Assembly: GCA_051294905.1 (NCBI GenBank) | Contig: CM119372.1 | Span: forward strand, 2,544,001 to 2,608,000 | Source: Botryllus schlosseri | Taxonomy: Eukaryota | Direction: 5' to 3' | Length of the DNA: 64,000 nt | Part shown: piece after piece, positions 2,349-52,994 of the stretch | Position numbering within the stretch: the stretch's first letter is position 1 | How the letters are laid out: each line of letters starts with the position of its first letter | Made by a program: the position numbers and the translations under genes | Notes under the pieces: model-generated | Databases searched by the model: none | What the model was told of the DNA's origin: nothing | What the model saw: only the letters and a program-made list of their open reading frames with translations

Positions 2349-3630
2349 CCGGTTTCACAAGCGACGGATGGTACCGATATACGAACGGGTATGAATATTT
2401 TTTCCTGAGTTCCCCAACTACATACGAACTTGCAACCGCTGCCTGTTCGGGTATGGATCCGACGGCACGCCTCGCAACTGTTGGCGCGCGAGATAACGAT
2501 CTTGCCGAGTAAGTTATTTCCACATAACGTGCAGGGATGACCGGTAACGAGGTACAATCGACTCTGCATAAGGGTCTAGCACCTAGAAAATTGGAAAAAA
2601 GTATAAAAAGTTTCAATTGATTTTTTGGTTTGAAATAATGACATGTTACCTCTGTTCTTACGTCATGCTACGATTGTAACCAGGTCACAAGGTTCCGGGT
2701 CACAAGTCAATCACACTTTTATAGCTTTGACTCGAGACAAGTCTAGTAATTTTCAATTCACCACCGAGTCAAGTCTCGAGTGCGAGTCCGAGTCGAGTCC
2801 GAGTCCAAGTCATTGTGTTGACAGTTTTGAATTCAATCCTGTTCGACACACTTTTCTCGACTATGCTCGAGTGATATAGAATGGCTCGCATTTTCAATGT
2901 ATTAATTTTCCTCAGTCCTAACAATTTCTGGCCCTCTTTTTCAAGTATCAGGACTGATTGAGGAAATACCAATAATGTCGTGACTTTGCCATTCGTCGAA
3001 GTCACAATGAAATGTCTGTCTTGGCGGACCTAGTCTCGAGCCATATGACTTTGTTCTAGTCGTGCACAATGACTCGAGTAGGCCTACATGTCGAGTCAAT
3101 ACACAAATTGACTCGAGTCGAGTTGTTTCATTTTACACATTTGCAAAAATCACTCGTCGCAAAATCGTGACTGGAGTTGGACTTATATATTGTGGGAAGG
3201 AGGACACTTTTTCAAAATCTGAAACGTTTTTTTATCAATATTGGAAACTGTTGATTTTGTGATAATTACTGGAAATGTTGTGGTGTTGACATCGTTTTTA
3301 CGTTTGTGTGTTTCGATCAGGGTTGCAACATGTATCCAATTGCATTTTAGCATAGACGCTGCGGGACTGAACATTCCAGACGGTGCTATCTACTTCGTTG
3401 GGGCGTCGGATGCGATTACCGAGGATTCGTGGGTGTTCTTGGACTCGATTGTTCTGAGCACAGCTGCCATATCGAATTGGGGTCAAATATCTCCAGTTGA
3501 GCCAAATAATTATTTAGGCAACGAGCATTGTTTAGTTTGGCTTCAGGCCGATGGAGGTACAATGACTGAAGGACTCGGGGACGCTGGGTGCGATGGACCC
3601 TATGCAGCCATGTGCGAGAGACCAATATAG
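2349..3630 (+). CDS. C-type lectin domain protein, last two coding exons (5' exons not found)
   Basis: Exon 2349-2508 (ttacag|...|gtaagt) encodes GFTSDGWYRYTNGYEYFFLSSPTTYELATAACSGMDPTARLATVGARDNDLA. It joins in phase 2 to exon 3351-3630 (alternative in-phase acceptor at 3321): IDAAGLNIPDGAIYFVGASDAITEDSWVFLD...NWGQISPVEPNNYLGNEHCLVW...LGDAGCDGPYAAMCERPI*. All four core CTLD cysteines and an EPN motif are present. Confidence 0.9.
2672..3182. mobile_element. Degenerate MITE of the CAGGGTTGTAAC/GACTCGAGTC family in the lectin intron
   Basis: Collinear similarity to 23105-23637 and 24538-25075; ends eroded. Confidence 0.75.
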
Positions 3631-4496
3631 CGTGATGGCATGTCCCGCATTTCACGAATTGAAACACATTCTAATATTACGACCCATACGTCCGCTTATG
3701 GATTACACTCCAGTCTGTTGGCTCGGCGTTTTAAGCAAGTGGCGCTGTTGTCCACAAGTTTTCCCAAATCGCGTGTCTGTAATCCATACTTTAAAAAATA
3801 CTTGATTTTCAAAATGCGCAACTAGAATTTGCCATATTCTACTGTATATTCCATACATATTCGACCAATATATCACAGAACAGAACACCGGTCGCTCGAT
3901 ATTTGTCGAGAAGATAAAATACACAGTAAGCTATCTATGATGAAATGCGTCAGAGAGTATATAGTTCGAAAAAGAATGTAAGCCTATACTTATACAGCGG
4001 TATAGTCAAAGAAGTCATTGTTGCTACTCAAGTATAAGTATAAGAAAAATACAATCAATACCTTACAAGTATAGATGTGCCGATTTTTTACAGTTGAATT
4101 AGAAGTTAAAGTAGTATAAATACGTATTACAACCACTTGAATACCTAGTGGAATATATCAAAACTCACTCGTCAACTTGAAAAAAAGTAGTCAAAAGTAC
4201 TTCGTTACCGTTACTGGAAACCTCCGCCTGTACAGTGTGTACATTGTACATTTACATTTTATTCCTGTTGGTAAGGAGAGGTCATATCATCATATACACA
4301 AGGTGTCCTACTGTCCACATTCCATGCTTCGAAATTCATGTTACTAATGAATTAGTAGGACCGCATTGATTCGCATTCACAATTGTATGCCAGGTATATT
4401 TGGTAAATACTGCATTCGTAAAACATTAAGGGTCATTTTGTATCGTCCATTAATGCCAAATATAGGCTTACACATTTGTGCAGCGAGGCATTAGAA

Positions 4497-5667
4497 CAGT
4501 GCTCTTCAACCGGGGTTGTCGTACACCCTAGAGGGTGTACCATAATTTGCAAAGGGTGTACCACTCGGATGGGGTGTACAGGGGTGTACCAGATCCAAAT
4601 TACAATGAGCTGATGGCTAGCTATCACAAAGGCAGGTTTATGGGTCAGTACAGGTTGACGGACAGGATAATTAGCAATATGGTACGATGTTTTCTCAAGT
4701 CTAATCCTGTACACCACTTGATTGTGATGCCATAAGCAAATATTTCTCCTATTCATTTAGCCGTCGGCAATAGACCAATGATTCCGTTTGGTGTTGGAAA
4801 GTATGCAGTTAACAGACATGTGTTCAGCTAGTCATTTGTCTTTTAGTGATTTTTGAGGAAACCGCTGCGATAGCTCAGACTTCTTGAGTTGGTACTTCCT
4901 ACCCGACGTTCATAAATGCCGCAATGCGCATAAATGAGGTGACGTAGCCAGCCAGGGTCGAACCAGCTTCCATGTTGAAATCGAAACCCTTTTGTTTTAA
5001 AATGCCGATTTTATGTCCAATATTTCGCCATACATTTGCAATTTAGTATTTTGTTATTAGTGATGCAAATTAGCGACAATAGACCGTGTATAGCGGCATA
5101 CGATCTGAGGTTATTGACATCTCTTGCAGCCCATGTGCTACTATCGACTGTGTGTGGTGTGGGGGAGGCCTGATACGCAGTAGGCTGGTGCGCCTGCTAT
5201 CATCGCTGATCTAAATTACTGCTTCTGCAGCAGTAGCTTTACCTACTTTACCTAATTTGCGTGGCGGGCGGCCTAACTGGCTGCGAATAGACTCTGTGAC
5301 CAAATACTATTTTATTCAAATCCAAATTTTTTGACGGCAATTAACTCCGCTTCTACTGGTTTGAAGAATATCGTTTTTATAGACAACCTAATACTTTCAT
5401 GGGGTGAACAGAAAAATTTCAAATTTTTCCTTATTTATTTTATGTAATAAATAGAAACTTTCTTCTCGCGTAGCAATGTGGCTACTGGTTGGAATTGAAC
5501 CAAATTTGGTGTGTAGGCTTAAGTTAGGTAGCCTAACAATTTTATCAAGTAGCCAGTACGATTTGAGATGAAAAGTCATTTTTGAAGACCCCTAATGAAC
5601 AGGGGTGTACGAGTTTTGAGCAAACGTTAAAAGGGTGTACCACGTCGAAAAAGGTTGAAGAGCACTG
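4497..5667. mobile_element. hAT-type non-autonomous element
   Basis: TIR CAGTGCTCTTCAACC...GGTTGAAGAGCACTG; perfect TSD CATTAGAA; subterminal GGGTGTAC repeats. Confidence 0.92.
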
Positions 5668-5853
5668 CATTAGAATATAAAATATTTATAAGAATGTATT
5701 GACTGAAAGCTGACAGCTTAGTGCTCAAAACGTTGATTTTTCTGAAAAGCCGGGCCAAATAGGCCTACTGCGCAAAATTATGCGATAGCCAACCTCCAAC
5801 GAGCTACAGTGAATCAGTAAACAGCGCTCGAGTTTTCTTTACACCGTCTAGGC

Positions 5854-6603
5854 CAGTGGTTCTCAACCTTTTTGTCTCCGCGGACCCCTCGAAGTCTACG
5901 TTCAAATTCAGCTCAATTATCGTGCAATCGTCTCCTGTCTTGTGCAAATGATGACCCTAGGGCGTAGGCTATAGTGATAAACAGAAACAAAATGACTTTC
6001 TTTAAAGTAACATCATACTATATTTATGTCGAAATTGCATTGCATTTCATTATTTCCAAGCGAATTCTGCAACTGCATTGCTTAAAATACGGGGTCATGT
6101 CTTGAAAATCCGCGCCTTCGATTTGATATGAACGAGTGCCGGAAATCCATTTCTACAAATATAGGTGGTGGCGAATGTAATAATAACGTGTAACACTTCC
6201 TACGACACATTTGGGTATGATGGCACCAAAATTGTCAAACAATTTTTTTTAATAAACATATACCGTCAAGCCTGGTCAATGATCATTTCTATCTAGCAAC
6301 TCATCTTGAAGTTATTATGAAAAAAAAAAGCTTTGCAGGTCTATATCACAGGAGAAAATGGATTTTTTTTAAAGAGACAAAATATTTTTTATCAGTAGGT
6401 TATTGGCAATTTAGCAATTAAAATAAGTCTGCACAGTAGGATATTTCATCTCAGACGGCCATTCTGTTGATGAGAGTTCTGGAGTTTTACTAGTAATGAG
6501 CGAAACTGCCTCGTGATTCTTCAAATTTCAAAACATACAACTTACGTTATGAACTATGTTGTAAATTGAGATCGAGGCTTAGGACCCCGGTTGAAAACCA
6601 CAG
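5854..6603. mobile_element. hAT-type non-autonomous element
   Basis: CAGTGGTTCTCAACC...GGTTGAAAACCACAG; TSD GTCTAGGC/GTCTAGAC (7/8). Confidence 0.8.
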
Positions 6604-6796
6604 GTCTAGACCCAGGTTGGTGCCTGGTTTCACAGACAACTCCTACTCGTTTCGTCAACTTTGTATCTTTTGATTGTATCACAATCTGATGGTGCTTTTG
6701 ACAGGATACGATTATTGACAATAAACTCAACAACAGCAATAACAACAGCAGGCGAGCAAGCTACAACACCGTATTCACCGCTTAGTCGTGTAGACA

Positions 6797-9700
6797 TTAT
6801 TTATGTTGGCTCTTCCAGCCCTCAAACTGCTGCGGTGTTCCCGGATCAGGTACTGCCATGTCGTACGGATCTTGGCTTTCTACAGCGCTCATGTCGTATA
6901 CATTGTACGCGGATTCCGAATCACCATCGCTTCCTCGGGACCGAAAGCTGTTCAATCCAATCTCGAAATAGCGTTGTCCGAATTCTGAAAATCTTGGCGT
7001 GATCACAGAAGGCGGCGGTGCCGTTGCGATGGCTTCGTAGATATTGGAGCTCGTGTACTCTGTATCGGAAAGAATGACGCTCGGTATGCTTAGGTTACGT
7101 TGTTCGGTGTCGATCGGGGGCAGGCTTGGTGGGCGGTCAGATCGTGGGTTCCACGATTGGTAGACGACATTGGCGGTTGTGTTTTTCGTTGCGATAACGG
7201 ATATTTGGTCGTCGCTGCCGCTGCTGTGTTCTTGAGACTTGTTTCGAGTCCTAAAAATGATAGATACTAGCATTAGCAAGAAGAGCTGTTTCGTAATGAA
7301 GCCCTTCCACTTTTTCGTAGTATTAGAGTATGTTTTTTCTCCTTACACTACTTGGTCAAGTTGAGCAACAAGTAAACGGAGATGAGACGGAATGAAGTCC
7401 TTTGTCACTCAGTACTTCTCCTTTCCTGGAATACTCAAGTAATTTTTGCCCACTTGAAATAATTTGGTGGCATTGATTTTAAATTACTTCCACTCCTACT
7501 TAGTTCTTCAATGTTTTATGCAAAATGAGATATATCATGCTTAGTTTTAATTACCTAGAAATCGTTACTTCTACGTATTCTTGAGCATAAATTTACGACG
7601 TTACTCTGTGCTTCTACTTGAGGACCAACGACAACGACTTTGACAACCTTTGTGCGGTACTAGGACGTTGGTAGTCTACTTCGCAAGGGACGAATATGAG
7701 TTGGGGCGAGGTATTGGCATACAGAGGTGAATATTCCAATGTCACGAGGTTGAATGAGTGAGTGAATGAGTGGATGAAAGTGTCCTCGGAGGACGCCCAA
7801 ATGTCCTATTTTGTGAGAATTTGTCCTCTTTTTTTGAAAATTTTGGGTAAATATACGTGAAAATTGGAAGTCGAATGAAAGTTATGACCTTTTGCTTAGT
7901 CAACCAACTACAAACTCGGGGTAAATTTACCTATTTTTCCGAATTTGTCTCCGGTATTGTAAGTCTGAAAATTTTTAAAAAGTGTCTTCCTTTCAGATTC
8001 CTAAAAATGGTAACCCTTCAATATGTGAAATAGGCTACTTATTTTTCGTAGTTATGTTTTTGACTATACCTTCACTTCTAGTCAACAGTTTTCAACTTCA
8101 GGGACAAAACTAGGCTTGAAAAACCTATACTTGATGGTAACTCCGAAAAGTAAAAATACAGAAGCTACTGTTGTCCTATTATGAGTTTAGCAAAAAGTAA
8201 GATATGCGACGAATATGTAGGCCTAATTTTCATCACCAACCTGCGGGATCGAAAGCAAGTCGTCATCGCAATCGCCGCGATAATTACGATACCAATCGGA
8301 AGCAGTATTACGATCAATTCGATATCATTAATTCCCTTGGTCTTCAACTGGTTCGTCGAAGCAGTCGTGGTCCAATTTCTACGAATCTTCCTCGTAATGA
8401 AATCATGAATCGCTCCAATGTCAGGAGAAGATGTCGTTTCTGCAAATTATGAGGCTCTTTACAGTTGCCCCGGGAATAAGGGATGATCATAATGCCAGTA
8501 GTGTGGGCTGGCCGGCTGGTGTACTTCCGTCTGTTGTATACGCATTCCTACTCGACTACACGTGACATTACCATTTCTCATTCTGTCTCATAACAGCCGA
8601 CTCGCTGAAGTTTTAGGTAGCGGTAACTTGCACATATATAGAAGCGTTGAACAACTAGAAAATTTTCTAAGCTATAATGTTGGATCAGAATTAGAATTAT
8701 AGCAACACAGGTTTTCCAAATTAGAAAAGATTACAATTAGAGTTATTGAATTCGCAAACACTTGGATACTGAATTAAGTTCCGAAGTTGAACAAAACACA
8801 TCAAGTTCAGTTCATATCAAATCATTTCTTAAAGCATGAAAACGTCTGTACACCAAGCTCGCCTCGTTACGTGAGATACAGATGGCCTGCGGCATTTGTA
8901 GCAATTTTTCCCGACTTTGAGGTCGATTGACTAAAAAAAAAGAAAAAGGTCACCTTTCCGGCTCGAATCCCGATTTACCGATTTTCTACGACATCTTCCG
9001 TTGGTTGACTAAAAAAAGTCATTTTTCTTGCTCAAGTCTCGATAACTCGTCGGACCGTTACTTGGCCGCTGATTTCCTATATCTCAGCCGAATTTCAACG
9101 TACATTTAACCAAAATTTTTAAAAAAGAGGACAAATTCTCAAAAAAGAGGACATTTAGGCGTCCTTCGAGGACACTATCAAAAAGGTCAAAAAAGAGGAC
9201 AAATCCTCCTAAAAGGAGCGTATGGTAACTCTATCCAAGTCTGCTTTATAGATAGGGTTACCGCACGTTCTACAGTAGGAGGCTTTGTCCTCCTTTATCA
9301 ACAATTCGAAAATGTCCTCCGAGGACGCCCAAATATCCTCCTCTTTGAAAACTCGTCCTTCTTTACAGTTTAGACAACCAGGCGATTGTACAGGCAGAAC
9401 CGAAAACGCCATAAGTGACGTCAAATCTGGATTTCTCCTGTTAGAGCGGGTATTTCGGGAATCGATTCGGATGACTGACCTTTTTGTTTAGTCGATATTA
9501 CAGTATTTCTAGTTGAAGTCTTCAAATTATCCGAATCATCGTTCGATTTTATAAGTTTAGCGATATGTAAAGTGTCTTTTTTTCCGGATCTAATAATATG
9601 GTAACCCATATACCGCCCACTCTAGGACGGTTCACTGGCCCTCTGGTTGTTTTGTTACATAGGCATACTCACTTTCCGCACAATCCAGCACCTCATATTC

Positions 9701-11104
9701 GACGTCAAATTCTTTCGAGTTAGAATTGTACATTAAGGCATCAAATACAACTTCTATCTTGGGCGATTCTAGATTGCGGCTAAGGCAAGAGGAATAGTCT
9801 GATAGGATGTGATTACATTTGTCCGAGGAGGCGTAGGTAACACAAAACGGATCTCTCCTGTGACAGTCGAAATTTTCTGTGAAAATAAAATACGCAGACA
9901 TATACTTAAGTTTATGTATGCGAGATTAATATTGAAGGGATACAGACTACTTTAATTTGTTACAGATATAGGTTTGACAAAACAAGACACGCCTGACCGA
10001 TTCACATGCACTTAATTGTGATCCAAACATCCGTATGAGAGTAGCCTACAGCAGTCGCAAAATATAACCTCTACACAACTAAACTACCTTTATTTACGTA
10101 GAACAGAGCAGCGCACGTTGACGTGTAAATGTTCTCGGTGACCTTGAGATCAATTTCCTTCACATTGACGACGACAAGATAATCCTCCAGTTCAGGTTCA
10201 ATCGTCCATTGGCAAATCTCATCGACCAGGTAACCCCCTTCTGACAATGGCAAAGTAAATCGACCAGTTTTGTTTGCGCCGAAATTCATTAGCTCGCAAT
10301 CTGCCAAGGAATCCGAAGATCCTGCAAAAGGCATGGAGTAGGCGTTGAGCCATACCAGTGGTTTTCAAACTGGGGGTGGGGGGGGGGGGGTGAAAGCATC
10401 GGATGACCACCGGAGAGAAACCCATACTGGTTAATTTGTGCTGTAACTTCCAAGTTTTAATGGCAATATTCCTAATTTTACTGATACCGAGCCGAAAATA
10501 TCCCTGAATGAAGTGTAAGTGCTGAATGTGTTGTGTGTAGCTGTGCCAATGGATTTTGATTTACCTTATGGTCAGGTACGTTAAGACAGGAGTATCCAGA
10601 CGAGTTCTAGAAATCCCTGGTTTGAGCCAAGCTCAAGAAGGGATTAGGCACCTAAATCGCTAAAATATCCATGTGCTACGTGCTACAGCCTACTATTGCA
10701 CATGTTGATGCATAACAAAATATTCAACCAGAAACTTTTTCGCTTTCATCGCGATTTAGCCTACCTCTATGTATAGTCCAAATTCGATAATTAGGAAGTA
10801 TCTCAACAGTCATAACACCTTCCATGCCACCCAACAATGCGTTGGGATTGCAAAAATTCTGGTTGCTCTTTTATATATTTTTTATTTTATGCAAAATTAT
10901 TGACTATCATCAAGGGAGGCATGTCCAAACAAGTTTGAGAACCACTGAGCTAGACAGTGGCTGACGATTATAAGGAGTGTTAATGATACCGCTCTAGTTT
11001 GACACATCTAATCTTTGCTTCTCAGAAATGACGAAAGTGAAAATGCCTTAAAAGAACTTACGTGATAGGACATGCAACGCTATCCATAATATCCACAACG
11101 ACAT
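6797..11104 (-). CDS. Type-I membrane receptor A: signal peptide, 8-Cys CUB-like domain, stalk, TM, Tyr-rich tail (about 377 aa)
   Basis: Exons 11104-11062 (MSLWILWIALHVLS), 10321-10088 (DCELMNFGANKTGRFTLP...ICQWTIEP...VVVNVKEIDL), 9876-9673 (...FDVEYEVLDCAE), 8439-8241 (stalk + IELIVILLPIGIVIIAAIAMTTCFRSRR), 7250-6797 (tail). All introns GT-AG, phases 1,1,1,2; 1134 nt with no internal stop. Confidence 0.88.
9253..9610. mobile_element. MITE of the TAGGGTTACC/GAGGAC family
   Basis: TAGGGTTACC...GGTAACCCATA ends; GAGGAC/GTCCTC motifs shared with about 7780-8020, 9110-9230, 35430-35535 and 49050. Confidence 0.6.
10356..10947. mobile_element. hAT-type MITE in intron 1 of receptor A
   Basis: CAGTGGTTTTCAAACT...AGTTTGAGAACCACTG; imperfect TSD AGCCATAC/AGCTAGAC. 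Confidence 0.75.
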
Positions 11105-11679
11105 ATTGACATTTATCCAAAATGTCCGATGGTTTAAAGGAAACTAACATAGATTAGGTGTTATTATCAAATACAGCGAGTATATTGGATATTGACTACA
11201 GAATAGTTTACGTTTCATTCCTCTCCATACAGAATATATGACCTCCTAACTCTTTAAAACGGTTTATCGATGTCAGATGTAGGCTACCTGCTCGTACTGT
11301 ATAGGGAGCATTTCAGCAATGCGCTACAGGTCACGACTGAATCGAATTTTGAAAGTTTCTATTTAATTCCATGCGAAATATAGGAATGAGCGTACTTCCT
11401 GTTCATTGAAATACATCACTCGTTCAACAAAGATTACATAATTCTAAAATCCGTTCATTGAATAGCAAATCAAACGCTTCAACGGAATCCAGCGATCATG
11501 GTGACCGCGTATCTATGCAACATGCATGATTCCGTGCAATTTTTCGCAAATTGTCACATCTTGATGTCTTCCATCTTATCTATATAGCATTATAGCGGTT
11601 GCTTTAGAAGTGACAGCGATGGTAGAGGGATGTGTCTGTTACTGTGTCACAAACGTATAGCGTACGTGCTTATATATAG

Positions 11680-12167
11680 CAGGGGCGGGCAACCCACGGC
11701 CCGCGGGCCGGGGCCGGCCCGCGACGGGATTTGGAACAGCCTGCAGACAGTTTCTATCCCGAAAGTGAAATTCTAATCTGAAAGTATTGACAATTTTCAT
11801 GCGTCAAAGAATGAATCCACGTTTGCCAAACTGAGAAAAATGGTCGTGAAACTATTTGTTCTGTTTTGTTCTATTTGCGAGCCAACATTTTCGACCGGGA
11901 ACATTAACAAGACAAAATAACTGATGTTCACGTGCAGTCTTTACTGAGGGTTTTTACATCCAAATGCAGTTCAAAGAACTTGTTGAGAACTTTGATCGAC
12001 CACAGATGTCTGATTGACTTCAACAGCTATTGAAGTACATTCGGTTAATATATTAATTAAACACTGTTTTGGTCTTTATGCGATTAATGTGTCTATTCTT
12101 TAACCGACCCGCCAAGTACTCAATTTTCCATATCAGGCCCGTCGACCAGAGAAGTTGCCCGCCCCTG
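11680..12167 (+). mobile_element. hAT (SPIN/Charlie/Buster-like) deletion derivative with a transposase C-terminal remnant
   Basis: TIR CAGGGGCGGGCAAC...GTTGCCCGCCCCTG; about 11820-11960 reads FAKLRKMVVKLFVLFCSICEPTFSTGNINKTK*...TDVHVQSLLRV, like the hAT dimerization domain. Confidence 0.8.
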
Positions 12168-14214
12168 TTACATAGGGTCTACCACACAGGGTGTACGATA
12201 GCGAATATGCTGACATTTGCTTTGCACGAAGAGCTATTAGACCGCCTGCGGGGATACACGTCGCCTTCAGTTTACAATCGTGCATACATCTGTTGTTCCT
12301 ACGACATAACCACAATAGTGGGAATATTCACATAATATTGTACAATGTATATTACGGTTCTCGAATATCTGGAAAAGTTCTTAAATGCTGCATTGTAATG
12401 TCTCATCCTTCTATCGATTATTGTTAAAAAAAAACATCACTGAGCATACAACAAGCTCACGGGGAAGTCGTTAAGATTTCGCGGAAACTGTTTAAAAGTC
12501 TATAGTCGCCGAAGAGTGAGCGGGCCACCAACCATAGAACAGCGCGTAGACTTAGCAAGCACAAATGACGGTGGTTGAGTGGCTACTCCGCGATGCGACA
12601 ATGATCGATGGTGTGTTTTTTTATCAATAAATAATTTATAGGAGACATTACAATTACAACGTAGCATTTTTGAATTTTTCCAAATTTTGGGCAACTCAAA
12701 AGTACATGTACGCCATCTACTGCTTGGGAATTGTCATCGGCAAACTGATACAAAACTCCCTTTTCTTATTATATATCCGGTATAGTTTAGAATCGCAACA
12801 TCGCACCTATATGCCCGACGATTGTTACCCTTGGCGTAAGCAATTTCCATATGTTATAATAATACGAATCATATTTACAATTTTACCACCAAGTTATTTC
12901 CAAGCACCCTCTCTAATACCCTGCCGACGCATAGCTTACCATCGCCTTTGATTATTTCATTTCTGGTGGTTTTGTAATTCGGGGACACTGAATATTTATA
13001 TAAAATACTGTTATGTTCTTGATTTTGTTTGAACAATAAATCATACTACGAGGTTTCTGTATGAAATCAGTATATCATCAGCAGAGTAATTCAAGACAAG
13101 CGACACGATCCAGAGTGCAGTTAAACGAAAGACAGTAGCCAACAGAACACAAGTGTCTAAATACAAGCACGACACACGAGGAAATAATGATTGGCGGTAA
13201 TTAGGCTATACTAGTCCTATTGAAATCAAGAGTTGAACGACACTAAACGTAAATGCACGAACATATCAAATACATTCACCGGGCGGTATGCAACATTTAT
13301 ATTTATATTTACGACTTGTGCAGAATTTAAAACTCGGTTCACTCGACATAGTAATCATCAGGTGACTATATACAATAGTCCCTTTTAATTGGATGGCAGC
13401 GTTCGCGTGTCCGACTGCTTAAGATTCAAATCTGGTTCGCCTGCCATTTCATAAGGGTTTGTAAAGTCATGGTCATCATTATTCCATTTACCGTCTACAA
13501 TATTGTGTCCAACCTTATCAGAGGCCATAGTGTAAGTGTTGTTCATGTCAACATAATCGCAGTCGGCGAAAACGTAATTCGAATTGCTGATTCCATCACC
13601 GGCTACGGCATAGAATGTCGAATCATTGACAGGCGTCGTTGTTCCACTCTCTTGCCAATTTTCATATATGACTGTCGTACGAGGGTTGTTAGTGTCAATA
13701 TCTGGTTCTGAGTATGGATTTTCCATGGCTACTCGCGTATTTTTCCTGAAATGAGGGATCATTCTCATCAATGAACTAAGCCTATACATGCAGTCTTGGA
13801 AAACTGTAAAATTTGCAGCCCTTCTAAATTAGATTAGAATTAGAATTACAGCTGCACACTATCTTCGTAAATAGATTAAAATAGGAATGATAGAATTCGC
13901 AAAAACTTGGGCATTGAGTGAAGTTCAGTTCATATCAAATCACAGCTCATTCTCGCACGAGAACATCATTTGTCTATGCAGCAAGCTTGGCTCGTTTCGC
14001 ATAATACAATTATCATGCAGCATTTTCAGGAATACCAGAAATTAGATTGCAATTAAATTTGAGCGGACAAACATGTGACAAATTGAATTAGAATTAGATT
14101 ACTGGCATTTCGTTCTAATGAGTCTAATTAGGCAACTAGCAAGTAAGCACTGAGCACCCGCACAAACCGCAATTGTATTGCTTAATGTTTCGCCAGCTAC
14201 TGAGCACTCACACT

Positions 14215-15170
14215 CTCACTGCGGTATCGTTGTTCCAGGGGGCAATATTGCGTCACAATGCCGAGCTTTGCTACAATGCAAATTTCAAGGCTGATTTTGG
14301 GGGTTACAGGGCATCAAGCAAAATAAAATCTATATTTTTGTAATCAGTACCGCGGTAGCTTTCGATTGAGAACAATTTTATCAAATCTCGCGCTCGACAA
14401 TCCAGTCTAAACAGTGCCGTAGATTGCCTTTGGTCAAATGGACGGAATGACCTAATCCAATCTCAGTGAGCCGTGTAATTTGGCTGTGTGCAAAGGCCAC
14501 TGTAGGCAGGACTACCGAATGTAGGACACTGCGCATCCACGCATTGAGATTTGAGTTTGGACTTACAGCGACACCGAATGGCAGCGATTTATCAAATGGC
14601 GCGCAGTGTCCTACAATGGTGGGAAGTCTGCGGAAAAAAGCAAATCTGAAGGTTTACTGCAATTGGGTTACGTCATTATTACCATTTGACCAAAGGCAAT
14701 TTACGGCACTTTTCAAGCTGGCGCGAAATTTGATCAAATTGGTATCAATCGAAAGCTACCGAGGTACTGATTACGAAAATATAAATTTTATTTTGCTCGT
14801 AGTCCTAGGGCTGGAGCCCCCAAATTTTGTCTCGAATTTTGCATCGTAACGGAGTTTGGTGACGTGACGAGAGCGAAATTTGATAAAATTGGTATGAATC
14901 CAAAGCCATCGAGGTACTGATTACGAAAATATAAATTTTATTTTGCTCGTAGTCCTAGGGCTGGAACCCACCAAATTTTGTCTCGAATTTTGCATCGTAA
15001 CGGAGTTTGGTGACGTGACGAGAGCGAAATTTGATAAAATTGGTATAAATCCAAAGCCATCGAGGTACTGATTACGAAAATATAAATTTCATTGTGCTGG
15101 TTTTCCTGGGACCCCTCAAAATCATTCTTTCATTTTGCAGTGTGACGGAGTATACCAATCGCAGTGAGCC
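14215..15170. repeat. Element with about 3 tandem 150-bp units and an inverted copy
   Basis: Units start at about 14723, 14873 and 15024 (gcgaaatttgat...gaggtactgattacgaaaatataaattt); reverse-complement copy at about 14280-14450. Confidence 0.8.
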
Positions 15171-17466
15171 GTGAGATTTGCATGTGTCCACACCATTGTA
15201 GGACACTGTGCCATAATGCATAGTGATAGACAACTATACTGCTTCTAGCGGCAATGCGTTACGACGAATTGCCTCCATCTGCAGTATTCTGTAACACAAA
15301 TTGAATGCAATACCTTTTTGATCTTCTGACGAAGAATGCCGCTGCAATTACAATCACAATCAGGAGAATGATAAGCAGCATCGGCACCAGAATAGCGGGT
15401 AACGTGGTATTTTTGGATCCCAGGACGATTGATGGGGTAATGGTGGTGCTGATGTTTTTGTTGTGGTATGTACTTGAATATATAGGTGTAGTATCCAGAT
15501 CTGTTCTGTATGACTTCGTGCTTGCATTTGTATAACTTCCATACGATGTCGCCGTAGCTAAAATGCCAGTCTCATTTTCAATAACTTTGAATAATAGCAA
15601 TGTACAAAATGAATCACACACTGAATGTAAAACGGATTCCAATGTTAGAAAATCATGGTACAAACACACGAAGAATGCATACTAACTAGGGATGGTGTGA
15701 ACCTCTGGAAGGTTCAGGTTCGTGTGAGTCGGCCACATAATGCCACAATGCTGAAGTACATATTGACGTTTTAAACGTCTTCAAATGTATCAACTGTATC
15801 AAATGATATATTAATCCCATAAAATCAATATCTTCCGTCGCTTTGCCAACAATTTCGACAAGGACTTGCAAGGAAATGAAAGCTTACCCCTTAACGGCCT
15901 AGGCCAGACCGGACAATATATTCGGGGTTGGAGTATTGCTACGTTGATATTAAGCAGAGTGTAAAACGGGTTTATATACTTTCTACCGATATTACCCCAT
16001 TAACAAGTTACACGACAGTAGCCAACACCTGCATCGCATGGATTTGTTTTTTATGATACAATAAACATGAAATCAAGATTGATTCCGTACGCCTGCTAGA
16101 TATTTTACATCAGACATCGATATCAATTTCATTGATTCGTTGAATGAGCATCATTCGCTGATTACCTACCAGGGATATCTAGATATCCCTGCTATGAAAA
16201 GAATTTCAAATAAAGATGTTATAATGACGAGAAAAATGGTAATCTATGAAAAAGGTTCACAGTGCAGAACCCACCAAGGTTCGTTTGTGAATGTGAACCT
16301 CCAAATTTCTGAGGTTCATACACAGAACGCGAACGTGAAACTCACGTTCACACCATCCCTAATACTTACCTTGGTTGCAATCAATGACCTCGTACCCGAG
16401 TTTAAATTTCTGTACAGGATGGTCCGGCACATAGTATTCGGACAATAATTTGATGTTCACCCACGGTCTTGATAAATTGGCATTCCTACAAGTTCTGAAT
16501 TTCGCAGGTCTGGTTGAGCAAAGACTGGAATAATATACGATGCATCGATCAATCTCAAGAACGCAGTCGTCGCGGTCTACAACAATACATAGAGTCCCTT
16601 ATTCTTTTAACGAAAAGGTTGATTTATCTTACTCCTTAAACGCATGCTCGGAGACAATAAATGACAATCCATAATTTATAAACGTCTATATATAAATCAA
16701 GAACCGTGGTCTTGCATGCGTGATTTGACGGATTCCTAGGAAAATATCGTCACCAGTAACAGCAATAAGGTAGTACGGATAAACGAGCAGGAAAAAGCAT
16801 ACGAACATCCGTTCATTTTCAATTCTCCAGAACAACTCTTATCGAATATAGTCTCGTAGGACATCTTGATCTCCTTGATGTCAACTGAGATGATAAAATT
16901 ATCAAGATCCGGTTAGATTCTCCATCGACATTTCTCGTCCTCCGGGTATGAGTTTGGGTAATTTGGAGACAAAATAACCCCGTGATATCCAAACAGCTTT
17001 AGTCGTGTTGAACATTGTCACAGACACCCGGAGATAGCTGAAATTATAACATATATAGGCTACACAGCATTACGTACGCTCATTGCTTAACGAAATATGG
17101 GTACTGCATTTGAGAAAGACGAGATCGCTTATTCTGATGGGTTTCCTGGATTCAATCCATGTCAAATACCAGATTGTCACTTTACGCAGCCATTTGTTTT
17201 CAATGCCGATTTGCATGTTTTCGGGTTTGATGATTGTACAATTCGGACATTTAATATTTCGTACCAGTAATTTCGGACATATCCGCGTCGAGGATATGTA
17301 TGATATACCATTTACGTGGAGCTAGGGTTAGGAGTATGGTATGGGTGCACATTTTTCGCACGAAACAAAGAATGACGACCAATGTTTATCGGACACGTCG
17401 TTAGATGGCGTGTCATAAATCAAGTCATAGAAATCCGTTTCAACTCTCAACTTGCGGCGCGGTATA

Positions 17467-18428
17467 GGGGAGATGTGGTACCGATGGATCACTGGGATCG
17501 AAAATACTTGAAAAATTCTCCATGATAATTCCATGATTACACTCTGTGAATTTGTCTACAATTACATGCTGACAGAATCTTTCGTCACATGCAAAAAAAT
17601 TCAACCTGCGTGAGTTATGGGGTCTGTGAGGAATGATTTACGTTTTAGGGGGTGTAAAGTAAATTTGGATCGACATTTGCATTTTTCTATATCACCTTTC
17701 AGACTATCAAACCCGCCATAATTTTTGATGTGAAGTATAGGGCTTGTATCAGGGTGTATAATGAAACCTATTTTTTGAATCAATAACATCCTCGAGTGGA
17801 CCATTTTCAAGTCAATTACAATATTTATGGGGTGGGGGACCTATGGTACCATAGCCAAATCAAGCAGAATAGATAGACCAACTAATCACTTAACAACATA
17901 AACTCGCCTACATATATATAGGCAGTAAATCATAGTTACCTGTGGTGTTTTATCGGTATTACGAGGTATTTTAAAGTCAAAATGTCGATTTGCGGGTAAT
18001 ATGTATGTGGCGTTAATTTTGTAAGTTTGGGCGTAAATCAAAACACGATTTTATGCCAACATTTGAGTTGATATATTCTATTTTATTCTTGAAGGTCGCG
18101 ACGAAAAATTTTTCATTGGCTTGCTGTAGCTTAGCTTATAGTACACAACAAAACAAGTTGACAAATTTGAGTTTTTGAGCGTATGTCTCATAGGTCCCAT
18201 GGTCGTGTGCCTTTGGACCCACCGGGTGGGGACCGATGACACGTTCGAGCAACAAACTTTAAACGTTTATAAATATTTTTTGAAAAGGCGGATATTCATG
18301 TAAATGTCCGCGATAGGTAGAGCTTGTATCGAAGTGTTGAGACAACAAAAGATCTGCTATTCTCGGCTGAAGATTTGAGGGCCAGAGAGCACTTTGCAAT
18401 TTTTGATCCATCGGTACCACATCTCCCC
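17467..18428. mobile_element. Tc1/mariner/pogo-type MITE
   Basis: 25-bp TIR GGGGAGATGTGGTACCGATGGATCA at both ends, flanked by TA (17465-17466 and 18429-18430). Confidence 0.85.
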
Positions 18429-18619
18429 TACCTGAAATTAAGATGAATAACGAGACATATATGACTGAAAATCTCATTCCATTCGCGAGTGTCCTTAGGA
18501 GTCACATCAGCAGCGATGATTATTATATATAGATAGGTCTATAGTAAATGCACATGGATATCGATTTAGACTCGAAATGTTACCCAAAACGTAATAACAC
18601 ACTGGTATATATATAGAGA

Positions 18620-25709: not shown

Positions 25710-28140
25710 ACACTGGTTTACACGATTTTTGCACCAGGACTTCTTTGGGTCAATTATAGCCTACCTAATTTGGGGGCGCTGAATACGAATCTGACGTTAT
25801 TTTTGCTCTATCACATCACGTTGTTGAGATATTATATATGTTGAATATTTCTACTTTTTCGAAGTAATCAAGTAGATTTGGGCTACTTGCAGTACTTACT
25901 GAAGTGGTAATGTTTTACAACTACTCCAACATCTACCTGAACAGTATTATGGATGAACTAATTACATTTGCAATTAGGTTTTTGTAAAGTAGAAAGTAGT
26001 TCAGGATAGTATTCCACCACTTTCATGAGTTAAATTGTCGTAAGAAACGCGCGAAATAGCCTCTGAATCATGGTAACTGAATATATTTTTCAAAGATTCT
26101 ACCCATGGGTGGTGTCATCATATTCCTTTTGCGTTAGCTACAACGATGCATCTTGCTAGTTCGTATGTAGTCACCTCTGACTAACTGTTGAATGTATGCG
26201 ACCACCTTCCCACCGACCAAATATACTTGGATATTTATTGACTTCCTCATGCCTTTAATTTCGTATTCCACTTGAAATAGTTTTTAGATGTCTTGGAAAT
26301 TATTATTTCTACTTGTAATTGAGTAGAAGTTTAAGGCGTTACTTGTGCTACTTGAGTAGCAACGGCGATCCCTTCGACCAACTCTAGTTCAAAGTAAAAT
26401 ACTACGGCAAAGCAGAAACCACCAAAAATGTAAGGTTTCTCGTTGATCTGTTAGTAAGCAGTGTCCATTTATCTGGTTGTCTATAATAGACAATGCAAAA
26501 GAAGCCCTTTATACCATGGCAATAAACCAATAGAAATACAGCGTTCGGAAACAGCTTTCCTCGATTCCGATAAAATGTAACAGAATATGAAAACTGGAGA
26601 AGAAGAATTAGCATGATAAGTACAGGCGTAGATTAATAATAAGAAATTATTTCAAGTTATCATGATAAGCCCTTTTTTCTTTGGAAAAGCAGCCATACTG
26701 TTTCTTCTAATGTTTCAAAACAAGCTTCAAAGGTCACATATTTAGGTCATGTACCGGAGTGAACAATTCTCTTCTATATAATATACCTACAATACAATGT
26801 TTTTTGTTTGCAAACTTTAACGTTCCATGAAAGAGCAGTGTGCTGTCAGAAAATGCACTGACCGATTAGGTCTGCAGGACAGATCTATAAAGAAAGATAA
26901 CGTAGGGAACTAAATTAGGTACAGAGCTACTAATCACAATCTTTAAATGAAGAGTGGTATATAAAGATGATGACTGCTACCGACTAAAATTAGTTGCATC
27001 AACGTATAAATTTATTGGTAGAAAAGAGGTCCTGATCGAAAGAAGATAGAGAACCACTGGATTCAAGTTCACCGAAAACTCAGTTAGTCTGTTCTGCAAC
27101 AACCCGGGTTTCATCATTTTAGATGATTTCAATAACAATATTTGATTTGTTGCAGTTGTACGCTTACCGTAATGTCACTAACGAAAGCTGAAATTTAATT
27201 ATTTTAATAAAATGAGAAAAATACATCCCGAAAAAGTTGATGTGATAGAGAAATTCTGGGCACAGAATCGGATTCAGCAACTAATATTAGCCTAACTCAA
27301 TCATTAAAATTTTTGAAGGCCACATTTTTTGAAATTTTCAGATCAGTGTAATTTTATGGGTCGAAAAGAGCTTCAGATTAAATGAAGATAGAGAATCACT
27401 GGATTCAAGTTCATTAAAACTCACTCATTCTGTACTACAACAACCCAGGTTTCATGATAGATAATTTTAATAACAATATTTGATCTGTTGCTGTTGTATG
27501 CTAACCGTGATGTCACCAACGAAAGCCGAAATTTGCTTAATTTACGAAAATGGGAAAAATTCATACGGAAAAAATTTGACGTGATAGAGAAATTATGCAT
27601 TCGCTCTCCGATGAGGAGGAGACTTCCTCGCCTCTCTCTCGACGTGAGCGTCTGCAACGAGTCGGTGAGAATCTGCCACCGCGGAGCTGAAGCGACTCTC
27701 ACCTCTCCTTCTTCCTCTCCTTCTTCTCTTTGCATCTCTCGTACTCTTCCCGCCTCTCGCGCCTTTCTTCCTTCCACTCCAGCTTCTCTCGTCTGCGACG
27801 CTCGTATTCTCTCCTCTTCTCCTTCGTCATGCCGCGCAACTGAAACGCATTGTCCGTCACCGCCGCGTCTCTGTGACATCTCACCACGTTACTGGAGGCT
27901 TCCGAGCTCATGTCGGAGGAGGAGGCGGAAGGAGGGCGCGGTCGATGACGTTACTTCTTCCCGCGACTTCCTTGGCTGTCGTCGTCGGAGCTCGAATCCG
28001 AATCCGAATCTGAAACGAGAGAAAGTTGTAGCGCGGTTCGGCAAAACGTCGTATTCTAGCACAGAATCGGATTCAGCAACCCTAAATTAGCCTAAATCGA
28101 TCATGAAAATTTTTGGTGCAATTTTTTTTTTAATTTGTAG
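25710..28140. mobile_element. Tc1/mariner-like non-autonomous element with a partially duplicated right end
   Basis: TACACTG at about 25710 and CAGTGTA at about 27350; loose subterminal IRs (gctgaatacgaatctg / cagaatcggattcagc); 27020-27340 is repeated at 27360-27597 plus 28060-28140. Confidence 0.5.
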
Positions 28141-50102: not shown

Positions 50103-52458
50103 AATTGCCACAATAATTGATTGAGCAGACATTGTACTGTAATATAAACCCCATCATGCTCGCATTCGCGCTTCAAGAAACATTCAAACTATTTATTCCT
50201 GGAGACATTGAAGTTACGATTTTCCACAGCCATAATATTTATTTCTGAACTAACGTAGATCGGGCATTGCAATTTACAATTTCACCATTTTGAAAGCCAG
50301 GCTATATCGTATCTGATAAGATAATTAGATGTCAGCGTGATATCTAATTATGTTCATATTTTTCCGTGAAAATTAGCGAGACAAGCTGAACAGTGCACAC
50401 CCTTACAATATATATCAATGAACTATAGTTTATCAATCACATGCTTATTGCAAAAAGGTTTTCGATCACAAGTGCTGCGCTGAAGAAGACTCAGATATTC
50501 TTAGGTTGTCGTGTTCAGTTTATTCATAATTTCAACCTTTTTAAAACACCGCAAGACTGCGTTAAGATGAACGAATGGAAAGATGTCGAAAGGAGTTGGA
50601 GTACAGTGTATTAATGAAACACCCACTTTGGCCTAGAGTCGTAGACCGGTATAGCAGTATTGGGATCAAGTCACTACCTTCGAGTCACGAGTCACCTCGA
50701 GTCATTGCACATTTTGACTCGAGTCAAGTCAAGTCAATCGATTTTCGAAGGTGACTTGAGTCAAGTCAAGTCACTCGTTCTTGGAGGTGACTCGAGTCAA
50801 GTCGAGTCAAGTCAAGTCAAGTCACGAGTCAAGTCACAATTCGAGTCAAATTGAATTTTCAAAGTATGAGTGATGATTCAAAGTCATTACATTTTGCTAG
50901 CTGTGTGAATGACAGATTGATTAGTGATATATCTTGAAATAATTAGCGATACTCAAGTTAAACATACGTGCAAAAAGGCGTTGTATCGCTCACGCACGCT
51001 TAGAGCTGCTAATAAAATACGTGAGCCAAAATAGAGGATCGAATACGAAGCGCCGAGAAGTTGAAACAAATTGATATGGTACATTACACTACCCATCCAC
51101 ACATCCGTGAGATTATAAACGCATAAACTATATTTGTTCGACTCACATCATACAAGAGGGTTGGCTAAGGTGGGCACTTCGCGATGGAAGCACTGAGCCG
51201 TCCAACAAACAGAGATACTTTGCTATTAGATTATTCTACAGCTAGTACATAAACGTATAAGCTGTGATCATTTCGTTTTCGGTCAATTTATTTGTGATGT
51301 AGCAATGAAGGATCAGTGAAAAGTACAATCAGTGAATGACTGATTGCTCTCACAAGTCACACCGGCGTATCGCGAACAATCCGAAGTCCGAACATAAAAA
51401 AGATGCAGCGATTTAATCGACACCGTTTACTAGATGACTTGAAATTGACTCGAAATTGACTAAATTTTGCTCCGAGTCACGAGTCAATCCACATTTCTGA
51501 AGCGCCGAGTCAAGTCAAGTCAAGTCATTTTTGCAAAGTGACTCGAGTCAAGTCAAGTCATGCGAAAAAGTTGACTCAAGTCCGACTCGAGTCAATTCAT
51601 GACTCGAGTCATCGCAACACGAAGTATCAGTGACGATTCAAACTCATTACATTTTGCTAGCTGTGTGATAAACAGAATAATTGGCCATTTATCTTGAATA
51701 AAACAACGAATATAAAGTTAAATATGCATGCAAGAAGGCGTTTTATCGCTCACATACACGTAGAACTGCCAATAAAATGTGTGAGTAACAGTGTAGTAGG
51801 CCTATAGCTACTGCTACATGCTACAGTCTGTTATTATCAACCAAGAGGGTTGAATACGAAGACCCGAGAAGTTGAAACAAATTGATATGATCAATACACT
51901 TCCCATCTACACATCTGTGAGACTATAGAGACGCATAAACTATATTCGCTCGATTTTTAAATCATACGAGAGGGTTGGTTAAGGTGATCACTGCAATCAA
52001 TGTAAGCACTGGGCCGCCTTAAGAACAGAGGCGGCTCGTGACAATATCGGGTGGTGGGGCAAGGGCTGCGAGCGACTTTTATCAACATGACGTCACAATG
52101 GCGTTTTCCAACGTAAAAATGTAACTTTATGATGGTCACATGAATTTCCCGACAACAGTGATTTTAACGAACGTAGGTGCCGCGAGAGGTTTGCCGGTGA
52201 GCCGTGACTTGAAGTGTGGTAACAAATGTTTTATTCATTTTTTTTAATCAAAAGATTATTTTACAAAATATACGTGAACTAAGAATCGTCCCGATGCCAC
52301 GAATCAATTATCAGGTCATCCTTAGTAGCATGCGTTATGATTTCATGGTAGAGTTAGAGATTACGCAAATCGATAGGCCCTAATTTTTCTAAGCCCGTCC
52401 GAAAGTGTTTCGTACACGATCCTCGGTGTGTTACGACCACTGAGCTGGTGGTTACGAC

Positions 52459-52994
52459 TAGGGCTGGGCAGTGGGCACAATGATTCGAGTACTCGAATCT
52501 GAATCGAGTATTAATTTTAATGATTCGAGTCGAGTAGTAAAAGTCGATTTTTTTGAGTACTGAAATTATACGCTCCTCACCACGGAAAGTTGATTTATCA
52601 ACGAGGAGTTTATCAACGATCAACGAGTTTATGCTAATTTCACTGTTGAAGCCTTGAAACCTTGATTGGCCGTATCGTAGCATACGAAACATGAAGTACA
52701 AAGCTACGAACGTTACTGGAAATAGCACATTTCCGAAGTCATGATCATCCCACAATATTGTCACCAAGTGCAATGAAATCGGTATGGTCGAAAAAAATAT
52801 CAAAGTGTCCTCAATATGATGGATAACAGGCATTATATTCTTTGTGGTCGCTTAAAAGGTACATATTTGAACTTTGACAAATAATATTCTGCTATGACGT
52901 CATAATGAGTGATACTCGATTACTCGACTCGACTCGAAGCATTTTACGTGATTCAGAATCGAATCACTCAGGTACTCGATTTTGCCCAGCCCTA
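52459..52994. mobile_element. Nested hAT-type MITE
   Basis: TIR TAGGGCTGGGCA...TGCCCAGCCCTA; perfect TSD GTTACGAC; TACTCGA repeats. Confidence 0.92.

Follow-up and report, generated by a model that had tools for sequence, protein, structure and literature searches.

A tandem pair of CUB-type membrane receptors with tyrosine-rich tails in Botryllus schlosseri: candidate members of a small styelid ascidian family

Introduction

Two neighbouring five-exon genes of the ascidian Botryllus schlosseri, designated here gene A and gene B, raise the question of what kind of receptor they encode and whether it could take part in immune recognition or allorecognition. They lie within a stretch of 64,000 nucleotides (GCA_051294905.1, contig CM119372.1, positions 2,544,001 to 2,608,000), hereafter the window, and an earlier note based on its letters alone had proposed a birth-and-death cluster of tyrosine-tailed receptors resembling the fester co-receptors (FcoR) of Botryllus. 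The answer favoured here, to which we assign a probability of roughly 0.55 as a whole, is that genes A and B form an old tandem pair within a small styelid family of single-pass, non-catalytic tyrosine-docking receptors, whose fast-evolving ectodomain favours a recognition role. No description of this family was found in the non-subscription literature searched. To our knowledge, the ascidian recognition receptors reported so far carry Ig/Sushi (fester, FcoR) or lectin ectodomains. If a recognition role is true, a CUB-based tyrosine-tailed family would add to the germline-encoded recognition receptors of the invertebrates most closely related to vertebrates, and non-self recognition in a solitary styelid would gain a concrete candidate; if these proteins are only CDCP1-like adhesion scaffolds, the gain would be modest, amounting to a new variant of the CUB domain and a gene pair that had not been annotated.

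Gene Models, Transcription, and Inactivation

Both genes are encoded on the minus strand, with all introns bounded by GT-AG (four of four in gene A) and in phases 1, 1, 1, and 2 (Table 1), and their models agree with the architecture previously read from the sequence, i.e., signal peptide, CUB-like domain, stalk, transmembrane (TM) helix, and a tail with seven tyrosines. As also anticipated, one copy is intact and the other broken: gene A is open over 377 aa, while gene B (362 aa, with a weak intron 2 donor, GTTCGT) presents in-frame stops at codons 22 (TGA) and 57 (TAA) and no frameshift. Gene A would be the expressed copy and gene B, in this assembly at any rate, one inactivated recently.

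Table 1. Positions of the features of the locus within the window
Feature	Position	Strand	Basis
C-type lectin terminal exon	3352..3630 (about)	+	Pfam Lectin_C E 9e-4, below cut-off
Gene A exon 5, cytoplasmic tail (disordered, seven Tyr) with the stop codon	6797..7250	-	gene model; depth in X1, X18, X22
Gene A exon 4, stalk and TM helix	8241..8439	-	gene model, X1 contig
Gene A exon 3, CUB C-terminal half with family-specific extra cysteines	9673..9876	-	gene model, alignment
Gene A exon 2, CUB N-terminal half	10088..10321	-	gene model, profile comparison, X1 contig
Gene A exon 1, predicted signal peptide	11062..11104	-	gene model, hydrophobic core
Gene B exon 5, tail with 7 Tyr; nearest match, Styela clava P0003 tail	13385..13745	-	tail comparison
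2.5 tandem copies of a 151-bp repeat, within an inverted-repeat element of gene B intron 4	14723..15098	.	repeat analysis
Gene B exon 4, Ser/Thr stalk and TM helix	15314..15557	-	gene model
Gene B exon 3, CUB C-half with extra cysteines	16370..16576	-	gene model, alignment
Gene B exon 2, CUB N-half, stops at 17020-17018 and 16915-16913	16807..17037	-	gene model, Pfam
Gene B exon 1, signal peptide	18432..18477	-	gene model, hydrophobicity

Splicing of gene A, for which an RNA check had been suggested, was supported in part. Contigs of run X1, which is taken as RNA by guess only and holds intronic contigs too, stop at three of the four predicted junctions. One of them matches exon 2 (10088-10323, 236 of 264 letters, no mismatches) and departs at the donor, and another matches exon 4 alone (8240-8439, 200 of 356 letters, no mismatches). 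The remaining junction, between exons 1 and 2, and hence the signal peptide, received no RNA support, the X1 contig beginning at 10323 and not at the junction. The depth of X1 was 0.48 in the intron bin 7257-7643 versus 7.5-8.7 in the exon bins, and contigs of run X10 ran through the same introns. In the raw RNA runs X18 and X22, the exon bins of gene A showed depths of 1.0 or less, and in one bin the mate direction was the opposite one. The 15 joints listed, of 230, included no splice joint of gene A. Expression of gene A is low. The 436 exon bases covered by X1 carried no mismatches, in runs chosen by near-identity and therefore missing divergent alleles.

The C-type lectin gene described as tail-to-tail with this pair was recovered as a convergent terminal exon 3.2 kb from gene A; its upstream exons were not found. 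This exon adds little to the interpretation of the locus, because it belongs to a set of 12 dispersed relatives and three of the four runs mapped gave it zero depth.

Comparison with the Fester Co-receptors

The suggestion that these genes could be fester co-receptors did not survive comparison with the published family. FcoRs are type I membrane proteins with an Ig-Sushi-Ig-Ig ectodomain and 520-610 aa; FcoR4 has at least 12 introns, and the more than 50 FcoR loci are paired with fester genes, encode canonical ITIM/hemITAM motifs, and map to chromosomes 5, 9, and 11, where they form FF/FcoR haplotype clusters (PMC12582321, PMC11507803). Genes A and B share with them the type I topology, tyrosine motifs, a tandem, partly broken arrangement, and evolution by birth and death within an ascidian, and by the patterns of the FcoR paper the core YxxL/V/I motifs of gene A are two YxxI only, a class also listed for FcoR, with none in gene B. 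Nevertheless, a single CUB domain stands against three Ig-like and one Sushi domain, and 362-377 aa in five exons with four introns against the longer, intron-rich FcoR genes; moreover, no fester-like partner was noticed in the ORF lists of the window. Membership in the FcoR family is hardly credible in view of the different domain composition, protein length, and exon count, to which the kinds of tyrosine motif would add.

Family Members, Divergence, and Turnover

The low amino-acid identity claimed for the pair was borne out at about 26%. In a BLASTP alignment of 287 columns, genes A and B were 25.8% identical (E 6e-23, pairwise), global identity was 26.5% (30% in the CUB domain), and eight ectodomain cysteines fell in register, with no exon-level DNA similarity between the two genes. 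Genome searches recovered five family copies, namely genes A and B and three paralogs (g1, g2, and g3) on contig C12, three of which are broken (gene B, g2, and g3), and nothing beyond genes A and B at their own locus. The birth-and-death part of the earlier note therefore stands as regards tandem paralogs, fast divergence, and gene death, but not as regards a large cluster, the locus holding two copies only. The dN/dS values were 0.21-0.39 in comparisons against C12 g1 and 0.84 between the two broken copies. A 169-aa frame following the TM exon of C12 g1 was rejected as a cytoplasmic domain, since most of it proved to be a dispersed repeat, with 150 matches scored.

Outside Botryllus, an exon-3 profile gave six matches among 1.84 billion representatives, three of which were type I membrane CUB proteins of Styela clava; the other three, two unnamed repeat proteins and a VWA protein of Pecten, were discarded as spurious. 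The S. clava relatives are uncharacterised predicted proteins with no published function found in the literature searched: P0003 (XP_039268064, LOC120343053), P0001 (XP_039270734, LOC120345372), and P0004/P0015 (XP_039266912/XP_077967409), two RefSeq versions of LOC120342231. Like genes A and B, P0001, P0003, and P0004 combine a CUB variant with extra cysteines, a stalk, and a single TM helix. P0001 matches the C12 trio with 43-48% CUB identity, while P0004 differs from genes A and B in its two CUBs and two ITIM-consensus sites, and no ortholog of it was found by search in the B. schlosseri genome. Another candidate, P0016, was dropped as a canonical multi-CUB protein. Since the family is present in a solitary species, it is not tied to colony fusion.

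P0003 is probably a co-ortholog of genes A and B, as judged from sequence comparison. Its top two genome matches were gene B exon 2 and gene A exon 3, and a clade of the three received bootstrap values of 80-88, with long branches and a resolution that was lost once gene A or gene B was dropped. The CUB identity between genes A and B (30%) falls within the range found for either against P0003 (28-31%), so the pair is no closer mutually, and tree branches of 2.1-3.3 versus 0.8-1.2 were counted as fast divergence of genes A and B.

Word-seeded protein searches yielded nothing with the exon-3 alignment (260 candidates) or gene A exon 2 (32 candidates). A further search, with alignment A3, retrieved four proteins among 7997 scored and missed P0001, itself a member of that alignment, a lack of sensitivity that limits any claim on family range. 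Two loci from a metagenome scan were rejected, both being short matches that fell by chance in the off-frames of other genes.

A Cysteine-Enriched CUB Variant

The CUB assignment was sustained by profile and structural evidence. The stop-free piece of gene B exon 2 was the only one to match Pfam CUB (PF00431, E 3.5e-6, above cut-off); gene A exon 2 retrieved no Pfam family, its CUB being degenerate and unmatched alone. In turn, an exon-2 profile built from the five copies matched CUB proteins in PDB (cubilin, E 1.4e-15), and on these Pfam and profile matches the CUB signature (N-terminal Cys, G-x-I-x-S-P-x-Y-P, and C-x-W) is taken as present. The exon-3 profile had no match among PDB sequences (one row, E 1.2), nor did an ESM Atlas search with gene A exon 3 give a usable one. 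This half carries the family-specific feature, and four extra CUB cysteines are common to genes A and B, the C12 paralogs, and the three S. clava genes.

The AlphaFold model of P0003 showed pLDDT values of 73-92 over residues 21-160 and under 30 in the tail, and its top Foldseek and VIA-align rows were CUB proteins, the best being C1r CUB2 (Z 11.3, rmsd 2.8, 112 aligned). The CUB beta-sandwich is accordingly modelled in this homolog and is predicted by homology for gene A. Calcium-binding CUB domains have acidic ligands at the YD and F-x-S-D positions. By this signature, in an alignment with the canonical CUB L007, YD was absent in all family members, and the F-x-S-D aspartate was absent in gene A and P0003 and replaced by Glu in gene B, which would place the family outside the calcium-binding subtype.

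Cytoplasmic Tails and Possible Signalling

As stated in the earlier note, the tails contain no catalytic domain: Pfam gave no family for the gene A tail and one match at E 0.3 for that of gene B. Seven tyrosines were counted in each of these tails and 19 in that of P0003. In a test with 1000 shuffles, the local score was reached by none for B-P0003 and B-P0004, by three for A-P0003, and by 16 for A-B; comparisons A-P0004, P0003-P0004, and all those with P0001 were not significant. Two motifs fall in register across the tails of gene A, gene B, and P0003, namely Y-x-x-W and the pair Y-x13-Y-x-M-A. A pattern scan for canonical ITIM, ITSM, hemITAM, and ITAM found none in the tails of genes A and B, and YxxP occurred once in gene B and never in gene A.

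The conservation of these motifs in a solitary Styela points to a non-catalytic phosphotyrosine-docking receptor that would work like vertebrate CDCP1 and DCBLD. The cysteine-enriched CUB domain would bind a protein ligand outside the cell, probably one carried by another cell or by the matrix; clustering might then lead a cytoplasmic Src/Abl-type kinase to phosphorylate the conserved tail tyrosines, which, by analogy with those vertebrate receptors, could dock SH2/PTB proteins. CDCP1, likewise a membrane-spanning CUB protein with no catalytic domain, has tail tyrosines that Src-family kinases phosphorylate and that recruit PKC-delta and SHP2 (PMC4395315). Similarly, DCBLD1/2 are scaffolding receptors with a CUB domain, whose multi-tyrosine tails are substrates of Fyn/Abl (PMC6029619). 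In stolidobranch haemocytes, a Halocynthia roretzi membrane glycoprotein with two ITAMs indicates that non-catalytic tyrosine-motif receptors signal (PMC5465252); genes A and B, in contrast, have no canonical ITAM.

This likeness does not extend to domain content. CDCP1 has about 830 aa and several CUB-type domains; it gave no significant sequence match to gene A or B, and its specific CUB families (PF23665, PF23667, and PF23668) had no Pfam match in the exons of either gene or in P0003. In DCBLD1/2, YxxP motifs are conserved and the CUB is accompanied by LCCL and discoidin domains; Pfam and a motif scan found no LCCL, discoidin, or set of several YxxP in genes A and B. A non-immune role as an ordinary CDCP1/DCBLD-like adhesion, migration, or growth co-receptor, with the broken copies as redundant duplicates and the divergence as the fast tunicate rate, would nevertheless fit the small family size, the tail motifs kept in a solitary species, and the absence of immune motifs in the tails of genes A and B. 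It also draws on a sub-threshold CDCP1_CUB_6 match of P0001 (E 0.017, 15 bits versus a cut-off of 27) and on the ESM Atlas neighbours of P0003, leads only, which included CDCP1 (0.86) and DCBLD1 (0.83) below a molluscan CUB membrane cluster (0.92). We consider this role somewhat unlikely, given that CUB identity to the respective S. clava counterpart (P0003 or P0001) is lower for genes A and B than for the C12 trio, that three of the five copies are dead, and that the two versions of one Styela gene differ by 25% in the ectodomain.

Another use of the tyrosines would be mainly as sorting signals in an endocytic or scavenging receptor. CUB proteins such as cubilin bind cargo, and the YxxI cores of gene A, together with an NPxY-type motif in the 37-residue tail of P0001, would suit such a role. 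However, 7-19 tyrosines, most with acidic neighbours and, in P0003, arranged in fixed-spacing repeats, would seem to exceed sorting needs, and this role is improbable.

Ectodomain Variation and the Case for Recognition

The preferred reading, a family of tyrosine-docking receptors that turns over by duplication and loss, leans towards recognition, in cell contact or of innate non-self, through its fast ectodomain evolution. A fast-changing ectodomain would also be expected of a sperm-egg or self-sterility family, and CUB domains take part in ascidian and sea-urchin gamete binding (PMC9265791); nonetheless, the CUB proteins cited from that source are proteases or egg-coat proteins, none being a CUB-TM-tyrosine-tail receptor, and a gamete-recognition role appears more improbable still than a sorting one.

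A bolder proposal is that variable receptors for innate recognition or allorecognition, based on the cysteine-enriched CUB, form a family that extends across styelids, a solitary ascidian included. Some of its alleles would be hypervariable, as in S. clava LOC120342231; gene B would exemplify null alleles or presence/absence; and only part of the members would have ITIMs. This broader form is doubtful. The best, albeit indirect, pointer to an immune role of the family is a hint from that same S. clava gene, in which variation is focused on the ectodomain: P0004 and P0015 differ at 73 of 286 CUB residues versus one of 232 tail residues, with no cysteine changed. P0003 and its other version, P0010, differ evenly, at 6 of 142 residues in the CUB and 7 of 230 in the tail.

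Gene models and ectodomain

The assembly analyzed, of eukaryotic origin, comprises 219 contigs (495.5 Mb), and the window has a GC content of about 40%. The proposed tandem pair of five-exon genes, one intact and one broken, with low mutual identity and tails of seven tyrosines each, was confirmed. Gene A is an open frame of 377 aa, and gene B, free of frameshifts, carries two exon-2 stops, at codon 22 and codon 57. Both encode a hydrophobic N-terminal core and a single transmembrane (TM) segment, their intron positions match, and the alignment of their products revealed 25.8% identity over 287 columns (pairwise E 6e-23). At the DNA level they have in common only two short intronic repeats, indicating that the duplication is old or the divergence fast. 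A pair of 69-bp inverted repeats encloses exon 4 of gene A, which encodes the TM segment; the two lie 1.27 kb apart, are 88% complementary and could favour exon skipping or deletion. A nested element in intron 4 of gene B combines inverted repeats with a 151-bp tandem unit.

Features of the window (positions without contig prefix) and of the rest of assembly G000
Feature	Coordinates	Strand	Remarks
Gene A, exons 1 to 5	11104-11062, 10321-10088, 9876-9673, 8439-8241, 7250-6797	minus	GT-AG introns, phases 1,1,1,2
Gene B, exons 1 to 5	18477-18432, 17037-16807, 16576-16370, 15557-15314, 13745-13385	minus	phases 1,1,1,2
Inverted repeats, gene A	7775-9180
Nested element, gene B	14295-15227
C-type lectin terminal exon	3352-3630	plus
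Low-complexity open frame	27461-28090	plus	209 codons
Open frame	52354-52851	minus	165 codons
C12 trio (L031, L035, L040)	G000:C12:22,011,000-22,103,000		copies at 22.014, 22.056 and 22.102 Mb
Intronless frame L028	G000:C12:21,983,664-21,984,668	minus	335 codons
Canonical CUB exon clusters	C11:21.12-21.63 Mb; C2:19.07-19.10 Mb; C6:14.37-14.75 Mb		from B exon 2 search

Of the 12 pieces scanned, only one gave a Pfam CUB match (E 3.5e-6), namely the portion of B exon 2 without stops. At E up to 1, an exon-2 profile built from five copies had 39 matches among PDB sequences, with cubilin, MASP and neuropilin at the top; the exon-3 profile had none. Exon 3 holds a family-specific block with extra cysteines, so that the domain has eight conserved cysteines; the canonical CUB has four. 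The structure was modelled for P0003, the Styela clava counterpart (LOC120343053), standing in for the spliced gene A product. In this model pLDDT was 73-92 for residues 21-160 and under 30 in the tail, and a TM helix was present. Foldseek and VIA-align both returned CUB proteins, the best in the latter being C1r CUB2 (Z 11.3, rmsd 2.8, 112 residues). The acidic positions of the Ca2+-binding CUB signature were largely absent from the family alignment.

Family size and turnover

The closest homologs belong to S. clava, a styelid ascidian. Searching 1.84 billion representatives with a profile yielded six matches, three of them uncharacterised S. clava proteins; the other three were dropped as repeats. 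P0003 matched A and B with 28-31% CUB identity; in the genome it matched best to exon 2 of B (E 1.6e-7) and exon 3 of A (E 6.4e-5). Trees grouped A, B and P0003 (bootstrap 80-88) with long A and B branches, and this grouping was lost if A or B was removed; their co-orthology therefore depends mainly on the tails, which for A and B are each single-copy in the genome.

The birth-and-death cluster anticipated in the earlier note was recovered in part, as a tandem pair with broken relatives; the further copies found with the cysteine block, at least three, form a trio on contig C12. These mucin-stalk paralogs, about 42-46 kb apart, are the counterpart of S. clava LOC120345372, whose product P0001 matched them with 43-48% CUB identity. 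The first (g1) is open through the CUB, mucin-like stalk and TM exons and apparently intact; g2 and g3 are broken within the stalk by frameshifts or stops, and are interrupted by transposon insertions. The dN/dS values in the CUB exons were 0.39 and 0.21 against g1, and 0.84 for g2 versus g3, with few changes. A third Styela protein, P0004 (LOC120342231), has two CUBs, and searching this genome found no clear ortholog of it. Where inspected (L007, L013), the canonical CUB exon clusters fell outside the extra-cysteine family. Located 27 kb from the trio, L028 resembles a CaMK/CASK-type kinase domain by eye and is a possible retrogene. The 52354-52851 frame resembles intron sequence following the stalk exons of g2 and g3 and is probably a dispersed repeat.

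Cytoplasmic tails and known receptors

Ten tail pairs were scored against 1000 shuffles. The tail score was reached by none for B-P0003 and B-P0004, by 3 for A-P0003 and by 16 for A-B; the remaining six pairs were not significant (at least 34 of 1000). A membrane-proximal Y-x-x-W is aligned in A, B and P0003, whose tail also has I-Y-E-x-I in common with A and E-N-P-Y with B. The Y-x13-Y-x-M-A pair occurs in A, in B and twice in P0003. By the patterns set out in the preprint on fester co-receptors (FcoR), core YxxI occurs twice in A and not in B, no ITIM, ITSM, hemITAM or ITAM is found in either tail, and the P0004 tail has two ITIM-consensus sites. We infer that the A and B tails may serve phosphotyrosine docking, mainly since the disordered tail keeps its tyrosine context when the remaining sequence is close to saturation.

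The suggested resemblance to FcoR did not extend to membership, which was rejected: FcoR combine one Sushi domain with three Ig-like ones (PMC12582321), are 520-610 aa long and occupy more than 50 loci (PMC11507803). The word CUB is absent, bar a DOI, from the main texts of both. CDCP1 (PMC4395315) and DCBLD1/2 (PMC6029619) are the closest working models, whose defining domains A and B lack. ESM Atlas neighbours of P0003, taken as leads only, were a molluscan CUB cluster (0.92), CDCP1 (0.86) and DCBLD1 (0.83). An ITAM receptor of Halocynthia haemocytes (PMC5465252) places such signalling in ascidians. Passages of PMC6916515 and PMC9265791 describe no CUB receptor of this type, and searches found no literature naming the Styela accessions nor, among the titles listed, any on this family by topic.

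The earlier note's interpretation is supported in part: A and B are fast-evolving tyrosine-tailed CUB receptors outside FcoR, with a candidate role in immunity or allorecognition. With a probability of about 0.55, A and B belong to a small, fast-evolving styelid family of CUB receptors that would signal through conserved tail phosphotyrosines, with no catalytic domain of their own, and recognition would be a likelier role than housekeeping.

Variation

Each Styela gene has two RefSeq versions, which differ evenly by 3-4% in P0003/P0010 and P0001/P0007. For LOC120342231, XP_039266912.1 (P0004) and XP_077967409.1 (P0015) differ in 73/286 CUB residues (25%), 8/77 in the stalk, 0/24 in the TM segment and 1/232 in the tail (0.4%), an uneven spread (Fisher p 9e-20) with cysteines unchanged. 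Divergent alleles would be the simplest reading of these sequences, and exons of a neighbouring paralog or assembly differences could also produce them. LOC120342231, from a solitary ascidian, is a candidate for a hypervariable receptor. This variation belongs to a paralog, not to gene A. Exons 2 and 4 of the latter showed no difference in contig set X1, but the runs were picked by near-identity, a choice that would miss divergent alleles. The reading of the family as hypervariable receptors seems unlikely.

Expression and splicing

Reads and contigs were aligned over 3000-14600, which takes in gene A and exon 5 of gene B, from raw RNA runs X18 and X22 and contig sets X10 and X1, the last of which is only presumed to be RNA. 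Two X1 contigs aligned with 0 mismatches: one of 356 letters solely over 8240-8439, which is exon 4 and a single shared base, and one of 264 letters over 10088-10323, which is exon 2 and two further bases. X1 depth was 0.48 in intron bin 7257-7643 versus 7.5-8.7 in exon bins, and X10 contigs continue through the same introns, DNA-like. Since X1 contigs end at exon edges with low intron depth where X10 crosses, we read gene A as spliced at junctions 2-3, 3-4 and 4-5; the proposed exon 1-2 junction found no support in X18, X22, X10 or X1. A few X1 contigs are intronic, and no splice joint was among the 15 joints listed out of 230, in a list dominated by repeats. Raw RNA depth over the exon bins was at most 1.0 (X18, X22).

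The 27461-28090 frame has no Pfam match and is probably repeat-derived. The lectin exon has 11 relatives (37-58% identity) on C2, C3, C7, C10 and C14; its bin had zero depth in X18, X22 and X1, and the X10 version is about 92% identical, at depth 28.8.
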